From positions 1 to 6,738 of the forward strand of contig JACPWU010000066.1 in the NCBI GenBank assembly GCA_016196885.1: a stretch of 6,738 nt of DNA. The letters are read 5' to 3'. The position numbers were made by a program, and so were the translations under genes. Shown in pieces: positions 1 to 6,738 of this stretch. Position 1 is the first letter of the stretch, and each line of letters opens with the position of its first letter. The notes beneath the pieces are model-generated. The model was given only the letters and a program-made list of their open reading frames with translations, was not told where the DNA came from and ran no database searches. This DNA is from Chlamydiota bacterium. Its GTDB lineage: Bacteria; Auribacterota; JACPWU01.

Positions 1-1
1 A

Positions 2-418
2 GAGGAGATGCCTATTTTTATTCATCAGGTTGTTCCAATTGTCCAGGTTCGGCCTGATGATTATGTTTTTTCGCTCAATGAAGAGACGGGGAAAATTGAG
101 CTGCACAGGATTATGGGGCTGATGGACATGGGGGTTAAGCCCGTGTTTCGGCTCACCACCGCCAGTGGAAGAAGTATTCGGACAACGGCGAATCATCCGT
201 ATTTAAAGAGAATCATGGATCATGGACAAGAAAAGGATCATGGATCATGGATGATGGATGATAGAAAAGACAAAAACACTTCAAATCCACCCTCCACGAT
301 CCAAGATCCATCATCCGTTTTATCCACTCCACCCTCCACGATCTATCATCCATTATCCGCTTCTCATTGGACCCCCGTGAGTCGGCTTCATATTGGAGAT
401 AAGATTGCGGTGCCAAAA
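2..418 (+). other. Hint/intein N-terminal splicing lobe. The first residue and block A lie upstream of the window. The lobe carries a repeat insert at 212-364.
   Basis: Translation is ...DDYVFSLNEETGKIELHRIMGLMDMGVKPVFRLTTASGRSIRTTANHPYLKR[insert]HWTPVSRLHIGDKIAVPK. The block B TxxH (T 185-187, H 194-196) and the following W..V..L..GD.IAVP strand match canonical mini-inteins as I recall them (Ssp DnaB: GRTIKATANHRFLTIDGWKRLDEL..HIALPR). Spacing to block B implies that Cys/Ser1 lies about 10-15 codons upstream of position 1. Confidence 0.8.
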
Positions 419-3400
419 CTTGCTCGTCTAGATTTCTTCGAGTCTCTGGATCGCACGTTTAATGATGGCAAAGCTTACGAACAGTCTACTTCGGAGATAG
501 AGGTCTTCGAGCGCTTTTTTTGCTTCGGACGAAGTGAGCCATTTGTGTTTGACAGAGTAGGTGATGAGTCCAACAGTTCCATGGACCTCAATTCTCAATT
601 GCTTAGCGATAGTTCGAGCAGCGAGATCATCAGTGAGGAGGATCAAGGGTCTCTCTTCAAGAGCTATTGTCAAGCAGTCAGTTTCACCGCGATGAAGATG
701 ACCCTTTTCAAGGGCGGCTTCCAAGGTGTGTGGGACAGATTTAGGGGTGGAGACGATTGTTACATTGGCCCATTTTTCAATGACACGATGACTTTCACGA
801 GGAATGTGTCGAGCTGTTTCTTCGATGACACTCACTGGGATCATGATGTGAGAGAGGTGCTTCAGAAGGGACAAACGACCTATTTCTTCCAAATGGATCA
901 GTGGACCGGCGTCGACGACCCATCTATGCATTCAGACCCCACAAGACATCTTCTTGAACAGCCTGATCTTGTTTCTCAGCAAGTTGAACAAGTTCATGAC
1001 CCAGAAGGCGAATGGCTTTTCGGCGGGAGAGTCGCTTTGCAAGATAATGTTCAAGAACGGAATCTTGATAGAGCTTGGCCAAGCCCAACTCCAATGCCTC
1101 CGTTAGCACAGCCAATGGCGTTTCATGACGGAGCTTGGCCAATTCTTCTAGCTGGGCCGGTAGGGGCTGGGACATCATACGCATCTTCTCCTTTCATTGC
1201 TTTTACTGACTATACTTATAGCACATTGCCTGCATCACGGTCAAAGAGAGAACTTGATGTTAGGCGCTTATCTAAAGCCAACACAGACATCCTCTGGGAC
1301 CGTATTCAATCCATAGAATTGACTGGCTTCGAGAGGGTTTACGACATTGAAGTGGAAGGAACTCACAATTTTATTGGGAATGGAATTGTGGCGCATAATA
1401 CTTATATTACCTCTCTTTCCCCAATACATGCTGTGGGGCAAAGTGCTTCTCCCCCTTCTATAAAAGAAAACGAAAATTTGCGAGATGAAGAAGAGAAGGG
1501 CCAGGTCGCTGTTGAATATATACTGCTTTTACCTCTCCTGATTCCTCTTTTGGTGTTGGGGCTTCCTCTTTATATGGGGATTAGATTGTTTTGGTCCAGG
1601 CGTGTTCGTGTGCCTGCTCAATCATTATCTCCCTCTAATCTTAGGGCTTATCAAAATCTGCTCATCGAGATCGATCCGGAGAATGAATCACATTATGAAA
1701 CTTGTGCTGGGATGGCGCATGCTTTTGAAGCCTTGCCGGGTGGGACTCTAGCATGTGTACGTCAAACAGGCCGTCAGTTTTTCCTGGGACAATCGGGAAG
1801 AGTGATCATCAATCAAAATGAAGTTGTCGGTTTGAGCGTTTTGGCTCACGAATATGCCCATGCAGATCCCAGGGAACCCCTTCCAGCCTTTGTGACAGGC
1901 GGCTCCTTTGCTGAGCTTTTTGAATCTATTTATAGGCGCTTAATTGCAGATGAGGTTCAGGCGTTTGAGGCTGAGATTCTCTTTGCCAAAAAATTTAAAG
2001 AAAAAAGAAACCAGAGCCTGTGGGATTTGCCTTCTGAATCGGGTGTCAAGTCCATGATGGTCGGGCTTGAAGCTATTTATGATGAGCAAGGTCGCCAGGG
2101 GATTCAGACCTGGCTGGAAAGAGGTCATTATCTCACTTATAAGCTTCAAGCGCTCAAAATGGCGGCCTTGTTCAGGGCAGGTGCTTTAGATAAAGACATG
2201 ACCAACCTAGAGCCTTTGGGCCAAGGGGGCGAAAAAATAGAAAGGGATTTGATTGAAGAACTTTGGAATGCCCTTCGGCCTCAACTCACTCAAAATCCCT
2301 TGGGTGTTTTAAATCTGTCTCGTCAGCCAGGAATGAAAAGGGCCATCCGAAAATTTTGGGATGTTTCAAAAAGAACTGGGGCCCTAGAGCTAGAGGACAT
2401 TGATTTTTTGAGAAATGATTTTGACAAGGTTGTCACCTTTGTCGGGGTTTTGTTTGGGGAACCGGTTCCTGAAACGGAGAGCTCTTCAGAAAAAGTGGAC
2501 TCGGGTTCTCAACAAGTGATTCATCCCCTTTTTAATCAGCCTTCACAATCCTGGTATGAGTCCAGTCAGGGGACCTTGGATGAGACTCAAGCCGAAAATC
2601 ATCTGGCCCGTTGGCAGTTTTTGGCGCAGTATAAGATTTTGGCTTCTGTTTTAGATTCTGTAGGGGTGATGGAAGCCCTTTTGCCACTTGTCTCCTCACA
2701 GGATCAAAAGAGAATTTTGAGCGATCTCTATGAAAGGGTCCAGACAGAGCCTCTGGAATTGTATCACGTGGCTAAAATAGGTGCCTCTCATGGTTATTTA
2801 GAGGCGAGCCATGAATTGCTTGAGAGGGCCTTTCAGCATCCTGAGAATTTTCCGTTACGAGTTGGCGGTCGTTCTCTTTCTCATTTGCTGGAGTTGCTAG
2901 AGATTTTTGACCAAAGAAGAAATGATGAAGGCAGGAAGAGGGTGATCGCTCTTTTGACCCAATATGTCGAAAGAAGGGGTCTGGATGATTGGATTTATAC
3001 TTTCAGATATATATTACGGAGGCCTTTTAAAGAGAATGAGGTCGATGAATTAAGGGCCCATGGAAAGGAGGTCATGGATCATTCATGGATTGCAATGAAT
3101 CCAGAGCGCATTCATGAAATATTGGGATGGGAGCCGAAGGATCATTATCGAAATTTTCTGATTTCTGATGATTCCTTTAAACGTCTAGAATCCCTTGATT
3201 CTGCTCTTAAAAATTTAGAAGTTAAACCGTCCCTATCCTCAGCTTCTTCGCAAGCGGTCAGTGAATTAAGGGCTCGCCTCAAGGGTCATTTATCTCATTT
3301 GGCGATGGCCTCGAAAAGTGATTGGAATAAATTGAGTCAATCGGGTTTTGGCTCCCCCGATTTTTATCAGGGACTTCCTCCTCTTCAGGATTTGAAATTG

Positions 3401-6400
3401 GGTGAGGATCGTTTTTCAAATTATGTTCATAGTGAACTTACCATGGTAAGTCTTTCCTCGTCTCACCCGTATCTTGAAAATCTAAAGCATTTCTGCTCTT
3501 TTAAGGATGTTTTGAAATTTTTGAGTCAGTTAGATCCCTTGTTCTTTCACGCCCCTCTTTTTACTTGGGTGGGAGAGAATCTGGATCAATGGCCACAGTC
3601 TGATGCGGCTCGTTTGATTCAAGTGTGGGAACAATGGGTGAAAAGAGCTCATCGGCTGTCAGCGAGATTTCACTATCAGGGATATACGAAATTTTATGAT
3701 CAGCAGATGTTCCTCCAAGGACTTTCCTCTGCCTATCAAAGTCTTTCGTCTGCATCCTCTTTCTTACAATCCCCCGAGGGAATGCATTTACATTTGTCCC
3801 TGGCTGAAGGATGGCTTAAATCTTCGGATCCTCTTCTCAAAGCAAAAGCCGGGGCAATTTTGGAAGAGGTCCAGTCAAAATCTGCTGCCGCATTTTGGTC
3901 TCCCCGAGGTGATTACGACACTAACACTTATTTTTTCTCACAACATACAGGCTTTTGGATTGCAAAGGCCTGGCTATTAGATGGGATACAGGGATCTGGA
4001 GGATTAGTCGCTCTCAATAGGGCCTATGACATTCTCTCAAACCCCTCTCAAAGACTTCATACCGCCGCTCAAGTTTCAGAGTGGATTGAGCTTTTATTGG
4101 ATTTGGCTTTGGCATTTGAGCGGGAGGGGGATTTTCGTCAAAGAGCAGCCTGTGAGCAGGCGGCTTATAATTATGTTCAAGAGATGGATCGCTTGATGCG
4201 TTCGGAGGATTTTAGAGCAAGAGATTCCAGGTATAACAATAAACCCAAAAAGTCGGACGCCCTTTTACAGCATCTCCAAATGACTTATCAAAAAAGTCAG
4301 GCCGTTTACAGAACAAAGCTGGCCATTCAACAAAATTCGAGACAGGCTCTTACGACGGGACTAGCGCCCCAAGGTGAATTTAAAGATTACAGCTATCGCC
4401 AGTTCTTGGCCATGGCTAGAGAATTGTCTCAAGCCCATTGGAATCTAGAATTGATTCAGGTGCTTGAAAGAATGATTGTACAAGTCAGGGCAAGATCGGG
4501 CTTTGAAATCGAGGGAGAACAAAATATCGTAAGTTCGATTCAAACATTTTTTGAAGAGGAGAATTCTTTTGTCCAAGTCGTTTTGAATGCCTCACTCTCT
4601 CCATTAGAGAAAGATGATTGGATTTTACGATATGCTCAGGCCGTGATCGGCGAGGAAGAAAGCATTTTAGCCAAAGGAGACATCAGTTCTTTGGCGAGAG
4701 TAGCTCGTGGGTTTGAGCCTTTGTTAAAGGCGGTTCGGGATGGAAAATGTCCACGCTCAGAGGCTTTTTTACTCAAAAATTTGGCAGAGGCATTGGATGA
4801 CTTGAAAGCGACTTATCCCAACTTAGTTGAGGGTGGCGTTCAAGCCTTAGCCCCTTTGGTGAGGGGGCTTGAAGAATCTCATCCAGAGCTTTTGCAAAGC
4901 GGGAAAAGAGAGGCCTATCAGGCCTTGCTGCCCGAAAATCAAGCGCTTCGCCAGGCCCTGGATGTTTTATTTCCGGCCGAAGATGGATCTGAAATAACTC
5001 GTTTATCACAAAATCTTTATGAAGAGGCCATGGAGGCGCTTAAGTTAAAAATGCAGTTGGAGGGGTTTCATCAATCTAATATAAATATATCTTTCTACAC
5101 TCGTCTTTCCTTGGATGAGTTAACAGGGTTAAAGAGCTTTGCAGTTTTGAGGGGAAAGATGACCGCTTCAAGTGATGGGCCTCTCGACTCATTCCTAGAA
5201 AATCCTAAGAGGGTTCGTGAGGTCTTGATTGGAGAGCCTCCCGACTCCATGCGGGCCCAGGTCTTTTCTCCCCTTTTAAGGGAAATATTTTTGAAATCTG
5301 GAAGTCCTGAGGTTCGGGCCATGGCTGTTCAAGGCCTGATTGTAGCAGGCTATTTGGGAAGTTATGCAGAGCATCTCTTTAAAAAAAATACGGCCTCTCA
5401 GCAAAACCTCTATCGTATCTTGGAGGCCGTCGCCGGGGAATTTGCCTCTCCCATCCCCGATGAATTGTTTGCCTTGTATGATGAATCTTCTCCAGCGATT
5501 CCGGAGTCATCTTTAAAAAATCTAAAATTCATTGAATACATTCGTTATTACAACAAATCAAGTAAGCCCTTACTTATACATGTCGATTCCCTAGCTCCCA
5601 CCATTCAGGATCCCCAGGCCGAACTTCTCATTCTAACGGTTTTTTCTCATTATAATGAAAGTTGGCTACAGGATTATACCCAAGACATTGTAGATGCCTC
5701 CAAAACCTTAAAAACGCGTCTCAGGGTTAAAATGTTTTTGGAGACGACGACGCTTCCCAAACCTTTACAGGATTTGCCCGAGACCCTGAAATTTGTTTTT
5801 GCCATTTTCTTGTTTCAAAATCCGGATATCCTCTCCCGATTCAATGCCTATTGCCGCGAAAATTCCAAGCTTAGCCAAGGCGATTTATTGTGTGCATTCT
5901 TTAGAATGGCCCATGCCGAAAAACTCGCTCAAGCGCTCGCCAACTGGCCCGGACTGCTTCCTCCTCCTCTCCAAGAGGCTCTGGCCCAAACGCAGCAGGA
6001 CAATGAGCCCATTTCAGAATTGGAATTCTTAATGGATTTAAACGAGGCGCTCGGAGGAGACTATCGGGACCCTTTCAGTGAAATTGACTGGTCCAGCCGC
6101 AAGGTGGGGTCGGTGGCGGAGGTGGTCCGGGCGAAACGCAAGGACACTGATAAATGGGTCGCGATTAAATTAATTCCCTCAAGGAGGATGAAAAGGATGG
6201 AGCGGCATCTTGAGGGAATGGAAAAACTCTTTGAAGTCTTGTCCCTTTACAAAGACGAGAAATTTAGAGGCGTAGATCCCGCTCTCTTTGGAAAGGAATA
6301 TATCCGGAGCTATCGCCAAGAATTGGATTTAAGAAATGAGGCGAAAAATGTAAGTGTGATGCAGCCTGTTTTTCAAAGAATAGGTCAAGTGAGAATGCCA

Positions 6401-6738
6401 AAATATCAAAGTCAATACACGCGGCCTCGGCTTTTGGTGATGAGCTGGGAGGAGGGGACGCCTCTCAAGGCTCTTGCCCCTGATGAAGTGAAAAAGGCCG
6501 TTGAGGCCTTGAGCCGGCTCGTGATAGACGGCATTTTTCAAGAAGGGGAGATTTTGGATGATCTTCACAGCGATAATATCCGTTGGGATACAAAAGGGCA
6601 AAAACTGATTGTCTGGGACTTTGGACGCCTAAGCACGATTACAGAATTCGATCGGGATATTCTTCTGGATTATCTATCAGCCATTTACCAGAGGGATGCG
6701 AATGGGATAATTCAGGCCCTCCAAAAAATGGCGGATCC
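2..6738 (+). CDS. Giant multidomain protein, internal fragment partial at both ends. Order: Hint/intein domain, linker, TM helix, HExxH module, long helical region, ABC1/UbiB-type kinase domain.
   Basis: Hand translation of frame 2 shows no TAA, TAG or TGA across all 2245 codons. Recognisable motifs at 167-205, 1286-1399, 1847-1861 and 5918-6625 all lie in this one frame. The sequence looks protein-like throughout. No start or stop lies in the window, which explains why the ORF track omits it. Confidence 0.85.
212..364. repeat. Composite repeat and dyad-symmetry insert inside the intein N-lobe.
   Basis: Four tandem heptamers, (GGATCAT)x2 then (GGATGAT)x2, occupy 235-262, with a partial copy at 212-226. 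A perfect 16-nt direct repeat TCCACCCTCCACGATC occurs at 286-301 and 328-343; these head an imperfect 42-nt tandem duplication (286-327 and 328-369). Inverted matches: 249-259 GGATGATGGAT pairs with 306-316 ATCCATCATCC (11/11), and 249-264 pairs with 343-358 (15/16). Confidence 0.85.
428..931 (-). CDS. PIN-domain toxin, DUF3368/COG2405-like (VapC-like ribonuclease).
   Basis: The 167-aa ORF has an N-terminal VVDAGPLIHLEEIGRLSLLKHL..IPVSVIEE and a C-terminal GETDCLTIALEE..LILLTDDLAARTIAKQLRIEVHGTVGLI. These match the conserved acidic and PIN-like motifs of DUF3368 proteins as I remember them. Its ATG overlaps the stop of the upstream small ORF (ATGCATAG at 931-924), the usual type II TA arrangement. 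Confidence 0.8.
   Translation of the reverse strand: MHRWVVDAGPLIHLEEIGRLSLLKHLSHIMIPVSVIEETARHIPRESHRVIEKWANVTIVSTPKSVPHTLEAALEKGHLHRGETDCLTIALEERPLILLTDDLAARTIAKQLRIEVHGTVGLITYSVKHKWLTSSEAKKALEDLYLRSRLFVSFAIIKRAIQRLEEI
924..1184 (-). CDS. Putative antitoxin, UPF0175/COG2886-like small DNA-binding protein.
   Basis: This 86-aa ORF lies immediately upstream of the PIN gene and overlaps it by 8 nt. The segment LEHYLAKRLSRRKAIRLLG..LVQLAE resembles the UPF0175 helix-turn-helix core that typically pairs with DUF3368. AGGAG at 1192-1188 is only 3 nt from the first ATG, so the in-frame ATGs at 1178 or 1175 (9-12 nt spacing) may be the real start. Confidence 0.65.
   Translation of the reverse strand: MRMMSQPLPAQLEELAKLRHETPLAVLTEALELGLAKLYQDSVLEHYLAKRLSRRKAIRLLGHELVQLAEKQDQAVQEDVLWGLNA
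1188..1192 (-). promoter_or_regulatory. Shine-Dalgarno sequence for the antitoxin.
   Basis: The minus strand reads gaaAGGAGaagATGcgtATGATG. Confidence 0.5.
1215..1244 (-). promoter_or_regulatory. Sigma70-like promoter for the TA operon, embedded antisense in the intein ORF.
   Basis: The minus strand reads TTGACC (1244-1239), an 18-nt spacer ending in TGc (extended -10, T1223 G1222), then TATAAG (1220-1215). This places it about 30 nt upstream of the antitoxin ATG. A GCAATG direct repeat at 1229-1224 and 1200-1195 flanks the -10 and could be an operator. Confidence 0.5.
1262..1399 (+). other. Hint/intein C-terminal splicing lobe (blocks F and G), ending in His-Asn. The +1 residue is Thr at 1400-1402.
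   Basis: Translation is RRLSKANTDILWDRIQSIELTGFERVYDIEVEGTHNFIGNGIVAHN|T. This matches canonical block F/G (Ssp DnaB: DIYWDSIVSITETGVEEVFDLTVPGPHNFVANDIIVHN|S) and lies in the same frame as the N-lobe. Confidence 0.85.
1517..1582 (+). other. Predicted single transmembrane helix.
   Basis: The hydrophobic stretch YILLLPLLIPLLVLGLPLYMGI is preceded by an acidic linker (ENENLRDEEEKGQ) and followed by the basic cluster RLFWSRRVR, consistent with the positive-inside rule. Confidence 0.6.
1847..1861 (+). other. HExxH (HEYAH) zinc-metallopeptidase-like motif.
   Basis: The context is GRVIINQNEVVGLSVLAHEYAHADP, with acidic residues downstream (FAELFES, IADEVQAFEAE) that could supply a third metal ligand. 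It loosely resembles minimal metallopeptidase modules such as DUF4157. This is a motif-level call only. Confidence 0.35.
5918..6738 (+). other. ABC1/UbiB/ADCK-type atypical protein kinase domain, continuing past the window end.
   Basis: EKLAQALANWPGLLPPPLQEALAQTQQDNEPI aligns with the KLGQ.LS.R.DLLP....EL..LQD.VPP lead-in. SEIDWSSRKVGSVAEVVRAKRKDTDKWVAIKLIP matches PiAsASiaQVHrA....VAvKV. The family signature ELDLRNEAKN lies at 6320-6349. LLVMSWEEGTPL, DLHSDNI (6563-6580) and WDFG (6614-6625) are also present. Confidence 0.8.

Follow-up and report, generated by a model that had tools for sequence, protein, structure and literature searches.

The dnaX-type intein is an example of an intein whose central region is overlapped by a second gene and whose own frame must stay open throughout. 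The embedded gene is under purifying selection while the intein frame drifts, and a secondary invasion of a mini-intein has been proposed. The passenger in this case is a single LAGLIDADG endonuclease, which lies on the same strand in the +2 frame and drives homing. Toxin-antitoxin (TA) modules of the PIN-like type II group, in turn, are normally free-standing, in intergenic regions or on mobile elements. Canonical homing-endonuclease inteins and mini-inteins (such as those of Ssp and Npu DnaB, PDB 6frg and 4o1r) are characterized by the HINT fold, the TxxH motif and a terminal HN followed by the nucleophile, and they tolerate a large insertion at the endonuclease site. A selfish gene inserted in a host ORF without host-frame stops and read through as a tolerated loop was described as ShiLan (2025, PMC11855218). 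The window analysed here (the whole stretch of 6,738 nucleotides of a Chlamydiota contig, JACPWU010000066.1) is similar to the dnaX-type and canonical inteins in the features named above. With a probability of about 0.7, we read it as a nested selfish element, namely a mini-intein in a giant gene, the loop of which holds an opposite-strand type II TA operon.

The plus-strand frame of positions congruent to 2 mod 3 contains no stops across 2245 codons, i.e. over the whole window at 45% GC, and the remaining two plus frames are full of stops. The sequence-only reading had described this frame as staying open antisense through both TA genes, and this is indeed the case. Most of the frame belongs to the C-extein of the giant host ORF (1400–6736, plus strand), which starts with Thr+1 (TYIT...) and runs off the window. 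An ABC1/UbiB-type kinase domain is recognized by Pfam at about 6032–6718 (PF03109 ABC1, 8.3e-30). The same partial giant ORF is present in the protein library as a protein of 2246 aa (P0132).

Upstream of the extein the frame passes through two intein lobes. The partial N-terminal lobe (2–415, plus strand; Pfam PF14890, Intein_splicing, 2.7e-19, and NCBIfam intein_Nterm) includes block B, TTANH, at 182–196, as well as the strand HWTPVSRLHIGDKIAVP. The window begins downstream of the Cys1 end; the near-identical intein copy at the related locus L060 begins with GR|CVTADTML, and the N lobe is 77% identical in nucleotides to L060 positions 9200–9608. Directly 3' of block B there is an in-frame repeat-rich insertion of about 48 aa (206–362) that contains 7-nt tandem repeats together with direct and inverted repeats, whereas in related inteins NHPYL is separated from W by about 5 residues. 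It gives the intein a second variable site; at another locus, L064, the matching site is occupied by TA cargo. The C-terminal lobe (1293–1399, plus strand; NCBIfam intein_Cterm, 8.8e-11) contains blocks F and G, VYDIEVEGTHNF...GIVAHN, and is 96% identical in nucleotides to L060 positions 10908–11028. Block G followed by the extein (AHN then T, 1391–1402) provides the penultimate His, the terminal Asn and Thr+1. In the AF2 model the pLDDT exceeds 90 at residues 11–70 and 121–140 of the N lobe as well as in the C lobe, and is about 50 in the 206–362 insertion. The lobes are modelled as a HINT fold, for which the best Foldseek matches are DnaB mini-inteins (E 2.4e-5). Judging by the profile matches and the model, the flanks can be assigned to a single class 1 intein of the HINT type, as its N and its C lobe, and splicing activity is predicted. 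Since both lobes belong to one intein, the cassette has to be read through if the C lobe and the extein behind it (about 1780 codons) are to be made. The same had been proposed from the sequence alone, and the lobe matches in Pfam and NCBIfam together with the HINT fold bear it out.

It is possible in principle that the intein does not splice, and that the antisense-coded peptide stays in the host protein as a tolerated disordered linker, which would then be the sole reason for the open frame. Cys1 is outside the window, and the locus L061 speaks for tolerance of unspliced read-through: there a PIN cassette like that of the window lies in a 2002-codon giant ORF (37% GC) without intein lobes, which means that splicing is not strictly required. 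Against this stand the splicing residues visible in the window (TxxH, the block F Asp, and HN then Thr+1), all of which are intact and invariant across 48 relative inteins, and the confident folding of the lobes in the AF2 model. In addition, a further copy of the lobes, located in a different gene, is 96% identical in nucleotides, which points to recent activity or to constraint. We consider a non-splicing intein unlikely, though it is the most serious of the alternatives.

The segment between the lobes (416–1292, 877 nt) is delimited by the similarity to the L060 intein, which ends at 415 and restarts at 1293. This cargo fills the intein loop that is the usual place of a homing endonuclease. 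No LAGLIDADG or HNH endonuclease was found between the lobes, and there is no Pfam or NCBIfam domain match at residues 140–430. On the plus strand the cargo reads as about 292 stop-free codons and the TA operon lies on the minus strand; the stops in the three plus phases number 10, 26 and 0. A same-strand passenger ORF in an alternate frame, of the kind that encodes the dnaX-type endonuclease, is therefore absent from the cargo, the other plus frames carrying 10 and 26 stops. The non-genic 108 nt (1185–1292) are also open on the plus strand (shuffle P = 0.15). AF2 gives pLDDT below 50 for residues 152–410, and the antisense-coded stretch of about 260 residues is modelled as disordered. With the complete intein as query, a word-indexed protein search returned 111 inteins, none of which aligned across the cargo region.

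The toxin gene (428–931, minus strand) encodes a PIN-domain protein of 167 aa of the DUF3368 family (PF11848, a precomputed match on an identical protein; the Pfam match to PIN_4 is weak, 1.3e-3). Nineteen homologues were found with E down to 2.7e-50, and their alignment shows no variation at the acidic residues D7, E38, E83, D101 and D102. A cassette identical to that of the window occurs in SRR12113417. The antitoxin gene (924–1184, minus strand, 86 aa) is the ORF 5' of the toxin, with which it shares 8 nt (ATGCATAG). It has no match in Pfam or NCBIfam, the latter giving no match for any toxin or antitoxin examined, and homologous ORFs of 83–88 aa precede the PIN gene in L002, L025, L057–L059 and L061; homologous partners are counted in 7 related loci. 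Putative expression signals lie at 1188–1244 on the minus strand. A Shine-Dalgarno sequence AGGAG (1192–1188) stands 4 nt ahead of the antitoxin ATG, and TTGACC (1244–1239) and TATAAG (1220–1215), separated by an 18-nt spacer, can be recognized by eye. The promoter is given here as a suggestion, because a consensus scanner with a rule stricter than this reading by eye found no sigma-70 promoter at 150–1500. On this evidence the two genes are a predicted type II TA module of the PIN/DUF3368 type, co-oriented and translationally coupled.

The two genes are placed differently with respect to the host frame: the toxin is codon-aligned antisense to it and the antitoxin is antisense in a register shifted by one, exactly as the sequence-only reading had assigned them. 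In the aligned register a host stop arises from TTA, CTA or TCA, and none of these occurs in the 23 Leu and 11 Ser codons of the toxin, in agreement with the earlier count. By comparison, in the extein (1421–6736) 42 TTA and 18 CTA make up 25.4% of 236 Leu codons (an earlier hand count of about 45 and 18, or about a quarter, was close) and TCA accounts for 24 of 145 Ser codons (16.6%). In the antitoxin, also said earlier to be stop-free in antisense, NTT|A, NCT|A and NTC|A junctions are absent; the host frame carries 0 stops over it and the other registers carry 3 and 8. CTA is used in 3 of the 19 Leu codons of the antitoxin, in a register where this codon is harmless, which serves as an internal control. 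When synonymous codons were resampled from extein usage, the probability of an open host frame was 1.1e-4 for the toxin, where 7.7 stops are expected on average, and for the antitoxin it was 0.046; permutation of the antitoxin's own synonymous codons gave 0.054; the expectation that such an open antisense would be unlikely by chance thus holds. The host frame is kept stop-free by codon choice within the TA genes. In the aligned register this avoidance costs the TA proteins nothing, since Leu and Ser have other codons.

The open antisense could alternatively be a by-product of the codon usage of the cassette or a matter of chance, with no selection involved. The codon-aligned antisense frame generally has the fewest stops, and under pooled TA codon usage the toxin's probability of an open frame rises to as much as 0.18, although this null is circular. 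High-GC relatives also lack the codons concerned. The close relatives without TTA, CTA and TCA fall into three groups: those that sit within an intein or a giant ORF (L056, L061 and P0134), those of high GC (L002 and L057–L059, GC3 0.66–0.84), where the absence is expected, and L025 alone, which lies inside a long antisense ORF. The high-GC loci are uninformative and were rejected as evidence of selection, as their genomes hardly use these codons and the neighbouring genes lack them too. The window cassette has a GC3 of 0.47, and free-standing DUF3368 homologues of 44–53% GC, taken as a family control, contain 3–9 TTA, CTA or TCA codons; homologous cassettes outside ORFs do therefore use them at moderate GC. 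Together with the CTA codons of the antitoxin, the stops of the other two phases, the product of 1.1e-4 and 0.046, and a frame-specific zero that is seen again at 5 further loci of moderate or low GC, whose TA families are unrelated, this makes an origin without selection very improbable.

Recurrence of the arrangement is seen in 6 of the 7 related inteins read at DNA level (the window's own included), which contain antisense TA cassettes. Four TA families are represented, DUF3368, VapBC, RelE-like and DUF433/DUF5615, each with frame-specific stop avoidance. No host-phase stops are present at L056, P0134, L060, L062, L063, L064 and L061, and stop avoidance beyond the null recurs in 6 loci other than the window. 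L056 holds a DUF3368 TA as in the window, behind ...NHPYL...IAVP, and P0134, known from its protein sequence, is an intein with an antisense-TA peptide between the lobes. In these two and in the window the cargo junction is located about 3–4 codons past IAVP/IAVT, and judging by this common junction the TA insertion is a single old capture in all three. The intein of L062 carries VapBC (P <5e-5 and 0.064) and those of L063 and L064 carry DUF433/DUF5615 cassettes. L060 holds in its intein a RelE-like pair (P 0.046 x 0.041), the identity of which rests on a weak PDB match (2khe, 4.4e-4), with no Pfam match for the RelE-like ORF or its partner. The intein-less L061 follows the same rule: TTA makes up 44% of the Leu codons of its ORF, yet 0 of 18 in the PIN gene. 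The annotation of L060 and of L059 lists separate fragments for the intein gene and for the TA genes. A hidden gene in the intein linker of L059 was considered and rejected, the plus-strand ORFs having no Pfam match.

For the same DNA, sense identity is 41–83% and antisense identity 19–63%, so that, as far as these alignments go, it is the TA proteins that have been conserved and the antisense peptide that has drifted. Conserved sense proteins and recurrent stop avoidance beyond the null together support selection on both strands, as had been suggested earlier. A related possibility is that the antisense frame encodes a functional domain, i.e. a third overlapping gene, and that its sequence is itself selected. 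Long antisense ORFs cover cassettes without an intein as well, with 517 stop-free aa over two cassettes at L025, where there is no surrounding intein or host ORF, and 596 aa at L002. For L025, continuation of the ORF under an alternative genetic code was rejected because the flanking stops include TAG and TAA, and its NHPYF was rejected as a degraded intein lobe, there being no other lobe motif in any frame. Selection on the antisense sequence is hard to reconcile with antisense peptides that are 19–36% identical where the sense proteins are 41–62% identical and that are predicted to be disordered, nor does it fit a slot occupied by unrelated TA families. An alignment of the antisense peptides used as query returned nothing in the word-indexed protein search, and an exhaustive HMMER protein search gave three proteins with such peptides. 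Against 1.84 billion proteins the peptide matched only other TA-antisense stretches inside long ORFs. A third gene is hardly credible on these grounds.

Some composites of this kind do decay. At L060 a frameshifted VapBC remnant is accompanied by a broken host frame, and L025 may be an ex-embedded module. It could be argued accordingly that the TA genes or the giant ORF of the window are nonfunctional and that the dual open frames are an undecayed leftover. The window gives a different picture, as the host frame is open at each of its 2245 codons with a GC content of 45% and both TA ORFs are intact, with the Shine-Dalgarno sequence, the coupled overlap and the invariant PIN acidic residues. 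No relative is closer to the window cassette than 52–53% identity, and the embedded copies of the window and L056 have a common junction at only 52% identity, which means that both constraints persisted over a long divergence. A relic is thus improbable, slightly more so than an intein that does not splice.

Under the preferred reading of a TA operon nested in a mini-intein, the operon consists, in order, of the promoter-like site, the Shine-Dalgarno sequence, the antitoxin and the translationally coupled PIN toxin. To arrive at the C lobe and at the extein of about 1780 codons in the window, the host ribosome has to translate some 292 codons that are TA antisense. The antisense-coded peptide would form a disordered loop, the two HINT lobes would dock, and the loop would be spliced out together with the intein. 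The host protein would thereby be unharmed. The intein would then be a neutral and hard-to-delete harbour for the TA operon. The TA may in turn penalise intein loss through post-segregational killing and would replace homing as the means of persistence; this stabilising (addiction) role is purely an inference.

A broader proposal is more tentative, and we regard it as somewhat less probable than its opposite. According to it, mini-inteins of Chlamydiota, Omnitrophota, Elusimicrobiota and relatives would constitute an undescribed class of composite selfish elements, whose endonuclease slot serves antisense TA operons as a landing pad. The TA cassettes would be adapted, through a stop-free antisense, to life inside reading frames, including intein-less giant genes, and the TA would replace homing by killing cells that lose the intein. 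No description of TA genes within inteins was found in the literature searched, and the giant-gene papers compared make no mention of inteins or antisense genes. Such composites are systematically mis-annotated because gene callers report the TA genes or the long ORF, not both. The window would be a clean natural case of long-term opposite-strand dual coding in bacteria, with a transparent constraint and a simple statistical signature. Intein cargo would be extended beyond homing endonucleases, which suggests how endonuclease-free inteins might persist, and TA modules would be placed in an overlooked niche inside ORFs. Designers of overlapping synthetic genes and of cargo sites in inteins could draw on the permissive loop and on the codon rule that keeps an aligned antisense frame open at zero cost.

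The locus departs from each of the known systems in a definite way. In the dnaX-type intein the passenger is an endonuclease, whereas here the two genes of an opposite-strand TA operon form the passenger, together with a Shine-Dalgarno sequence and a possible promoter that belong to the operon, and there is no endonuclease; in the window's intein family at least four different families of passenger are found in this slot. ShiLan resembles the intein-less L061 but differs in that its passenger, an HNH homing endonuclease, lies on the same strand, and neither an intein nor a TA module is involved (PMC11855218). In contrast to canonical inteins, the insertion in the window encodes no in-frame domain, and its coding sense is on the other strand. 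Finally, the TA genes match PIN-like type II modules (DUF3368/PF11848, VapBC, DUF433/DUF5615) in gene order, sizes, coupled overlap and PIN acidic residues, but unlike the usual modules they lie wholly inside the frame of another gene, which constrains their synonymous sites.

The host + frame, read from base 2, is free of stops over the 2245 codons of the whole window, and the remaining two + frames contain many. It stays open through the antisense of both genes of the toxin–antitoxin (TA) cassette, an antitoxin ORF (924–1184, minus strand, 86 aa) and a toxin ORF (428–931, minus strand, 167 aa) which overlap by 8 nt, ATGCATAG. The toxin is a DUF3368/PIN protein (PF11848 is carried by the identical protein) with 20 relatives down to E = 2.7e-50, among which the acidic PIN residues are invariant. 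The antitoxin matches no curated family of Pfam or NCBIfam; homologous antitoxin partners adjoin the toxin gene in 7 other loci. A putative Shine-Dalgarno sequence AGGAG, 4 nt 5' of the antitoxin ATG, and a promoter-like TTGACC-18-TATAAG upstream of this gene can be read on the minus strand; a consensus scanner called no promoter.

The toxin ORF is codon-aligned with the host frame and the antitoxin ORF is one register off, exactly as the sequence-only reading had it. TTA, CTA and TCA are likewise absent from the 23 Leu and 11 Ser codons of the toxin gene. For the downstream extein that reading had estimated about 45 TTA and 18 CTA, a quarter of the Leu codons; the count is 42 TTA and 18 CTA among 236, and 24 of the 145 Ser codons are TCA. 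When each synonymous codon was redrawn from extein usage and the fraction of trials with an open + frame was scored, P(open) was 1.1e-4 for the toxin gene, with 7.7 stops expected, and 0.046 for the antitoxin gene. Permutation of the antitoxin's own synonymous codons among their own positions gave P = 0.054. The host frame is open as well through the 108 nt of non-genic sequence that precede the antitoxin (shuffle P = 0.15). The stop avoidance is frame-specific: counted across the entire insert, stops number 10, 26 and 0 in the three + phases. Two observations speak against an overall bias in the codon usage of the cassette: the antitoxin has 3 CTA codons where its register makes them harmless, and free-standing toxins of the same family at 44–53% GC use 3–9 TTA, CTA or TCA codons each.

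Toxin proteins are 41–83% identical between loci in the sense alignment, and the antisense translations of the same DNA 19–63%, always lower. This asymmetry demonstrates that the TA proteins are conserved and the host-frame peptide drifts freely as long as it is stop-free. The stop-free dual-strand arrangement is confirmed, and the proposal of selection on both strands is supported by stop avoidance together with conservation of the TA proteins. The window, contig L056 and protein P0134 share a junction ~3–4 codons after IAVP/IAVT, and their toxins are ~52% identical. Most simply, this points to one ancient capture, after which cassette and intein diverged together under the two constraints.

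Flanking the cargo on the + strand are the N and C lobes of a single intein (Pfam Intein_splicing, 2.7e-19; NCBIfam intein_Cterm, 8.8e-11), with TTANH as block B and a C-terminal end ...VAHN followed by Thr. The window starts inside the intein, so that its first residue and the N-extein lie upstream. In an AlphaFold2 model built with 47 relatives, residues 11–70, 121–140 and 430–470 have pLDDT >90 and the antisense-coded residues 152–410 have pLDDT <50; the structured part resembles DnaB mini-inteins. The same intein is found in the Chlamydiae MAG contig L060 (JACOUC010000044.1), which matches window 1–415 at 77% and 1293–1413 at 96% nucleotide identity, with no similarity between these blocks or in the exteins. 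The cargo is therefore delimited to 416–1292, the usual position of the homing endonuclease in inteins. A repeat-rich in-frame insertion of ~48 aa (206–362), with ATCATGG-type 7-nt tandem, 40-nt direct and inverted repeats, directly follows block B (NHPYL); L060 has another, GGTGGAAGG-like repeat set at this position. The TA cargo of locus L064 sits at the matching site, apparently a second, hypervariable position at which the intein takes insertions.

The C-extein runs on for ~1780 codons within the window and ends there with an ABC1/UbiB-type kinase domain (6032–6718; PF03109, 8.3e-30), apart from which it is without annotation. A hydrophobic, transmembrane-like stretch, VAVEYILLLPLLIPLLVLGLPLYMGIRLFW, lies ~35 residues past the intein (1500–1600). 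Otherwise unrelated hosts (P0022–P0042, P0134) share with the window (1400–1408) an extein start TY[I/L/M] after HN. The N junction of many hosts carries the repeated motif GIGTTxP...HVEGQ|C, and some proteins (P0134) contain two intein copies, which suggests a multi-copy intein targeting a short repeated motif. In P0041, P0047, P0050 and about 20 further relatives of the intein (Patescibacteria and archaeal MAGs), the lobes enclose a PIN-like nuclease domain of the NYN type (PF01936; residues 213–392 in P0047), encoded in frame on the sense strand. It may represent a kind of intein endonuclease that has so far gone unrecognised.

The phenomenon is not confined to the window. Antisense TA operons occupy six of the seven family inteins with DNA sequence, window included, each with no host-phase stops; the operons come from four TA families and sit at two different sites. 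L056 (65% GC, same sample) carries the same TA family from 4 codons after ...IAVP, and its whole 1004-nt contig is open in that frame. L060 carries a RelE/ParE-like toxin (PDB 2khe, 4.4e-4) with its partner (P 0.046 and 0.041), with 0 stops in the host phase versus 4–9 in the others. L062 has an intact VapC (PF01850, 3.1e-9) with VapB (P < 5e-5 and 0.064). DUF433/DUF5615 pairs are found in L063 (P 0.0007 and 0.012) and, just after block B, in L064, where both genes are aligned and have no TTA, CTA or TCA at 43% GC. A further carrier known from protein alone, P0134, shows a TA-antisense peptide in its second intein, between the two lobes (exhaustive HMMER, E = 2.5e-6). The intein of L059 (protein P0039) is the only one of the set with no recognisable linker cargo (150-aa linker); the same TA cassette directly adjoins its gene on the 3' side, in convergent orientation (216–969, 1056–2771). 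L060 additionally has a frameshifted VapBC remnant between two copies of the N-lobe tail (9558–10161; HWTPVSQLHVGDKIAVP, then HWTQVSQLHIGDAIAVP), and its host frame is broken, changing phase and running into a stop at 9918. This locus may be a composite in decay or an incipient split intein, or an indel in the assembly may be the cause. Small minus-strand genes upstream of the intein gene in L063 (1006–2920, Elusimicrobia contig) encode a PIN protein, two retropepsin-like aspartyl proteases and a DUF5678 protein, and in L002 a retropepsin-like gene comes after the PIN cassette; both look like islands of TA and defence genes. L002 and L057–L059, of high GC and uninformative, were left out as evidence on stop avoidance.

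Stop-free antisense frames also occur over cassettes with no intein lobes around them. L061 (protein P0133; GCA_043811225.1, JBDRNH010000001.1) is a 2002-codon open ORF of ~37% GC whose minus strand carries the same antitoxin and DUF3368/PIN toxin pair, plus an antitoxin ORF of CopG type (1580–2495). TTA makes up 44% of Leu codons in the host and 0 of 18 in the toxin; P(open) is < 5e-5 for the toxin, 0.001 for the antitoxin and 0.04 for the CopG-type ORF. In L025 (Ga0114945_10059553, a 2-kb metagenome contig of 47% GC) an antitoxin/PIN pair is followed by a DUF433/DUF5615 pair, and one common antisense frame is stop-free across all four genes; the two of them whose register is harmless contain 7 and 8 TTA, CTA or TCA codons. 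This antisense ORF (212–1766, 517 aa) has no host gene around it and ordinary TAG, TAA and TGA stops at its ends. L025 may be a TA module that has only recently left an ORF.

From established intein biology it follows that splicing can tolerate a large insert at the endonuclease site, and that the loop leaves with the excised intein. The intein would offer a safe harbour where an insert does no harm to the host protein, and imprecise deletion would wreck a giant gene. In antisense orientation the operon would retain a promoter and autoregulation of its own, and the aligned register is probably favoured because there synonymous changes at Leu and Ser codons suffice to avoid stops. In return, the TA module may make loss of the intein costly. 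A literature search found no report of TA operons in inteins or antisense in giant genes. Nearest to the arrangement come the dnaX intein of cyanobacteria, with a homing endonuclease coded in the +2 frame, and ShiLan, an insertion in a phage methylase with a hidden out-of-frame HNH (PMC11855218). In contrast to these same-strand single endonuclease genes, the passenger of the window is an antisense TA operon; the arrangement is kin to the nested or dual-coding selfish elements of inteins.
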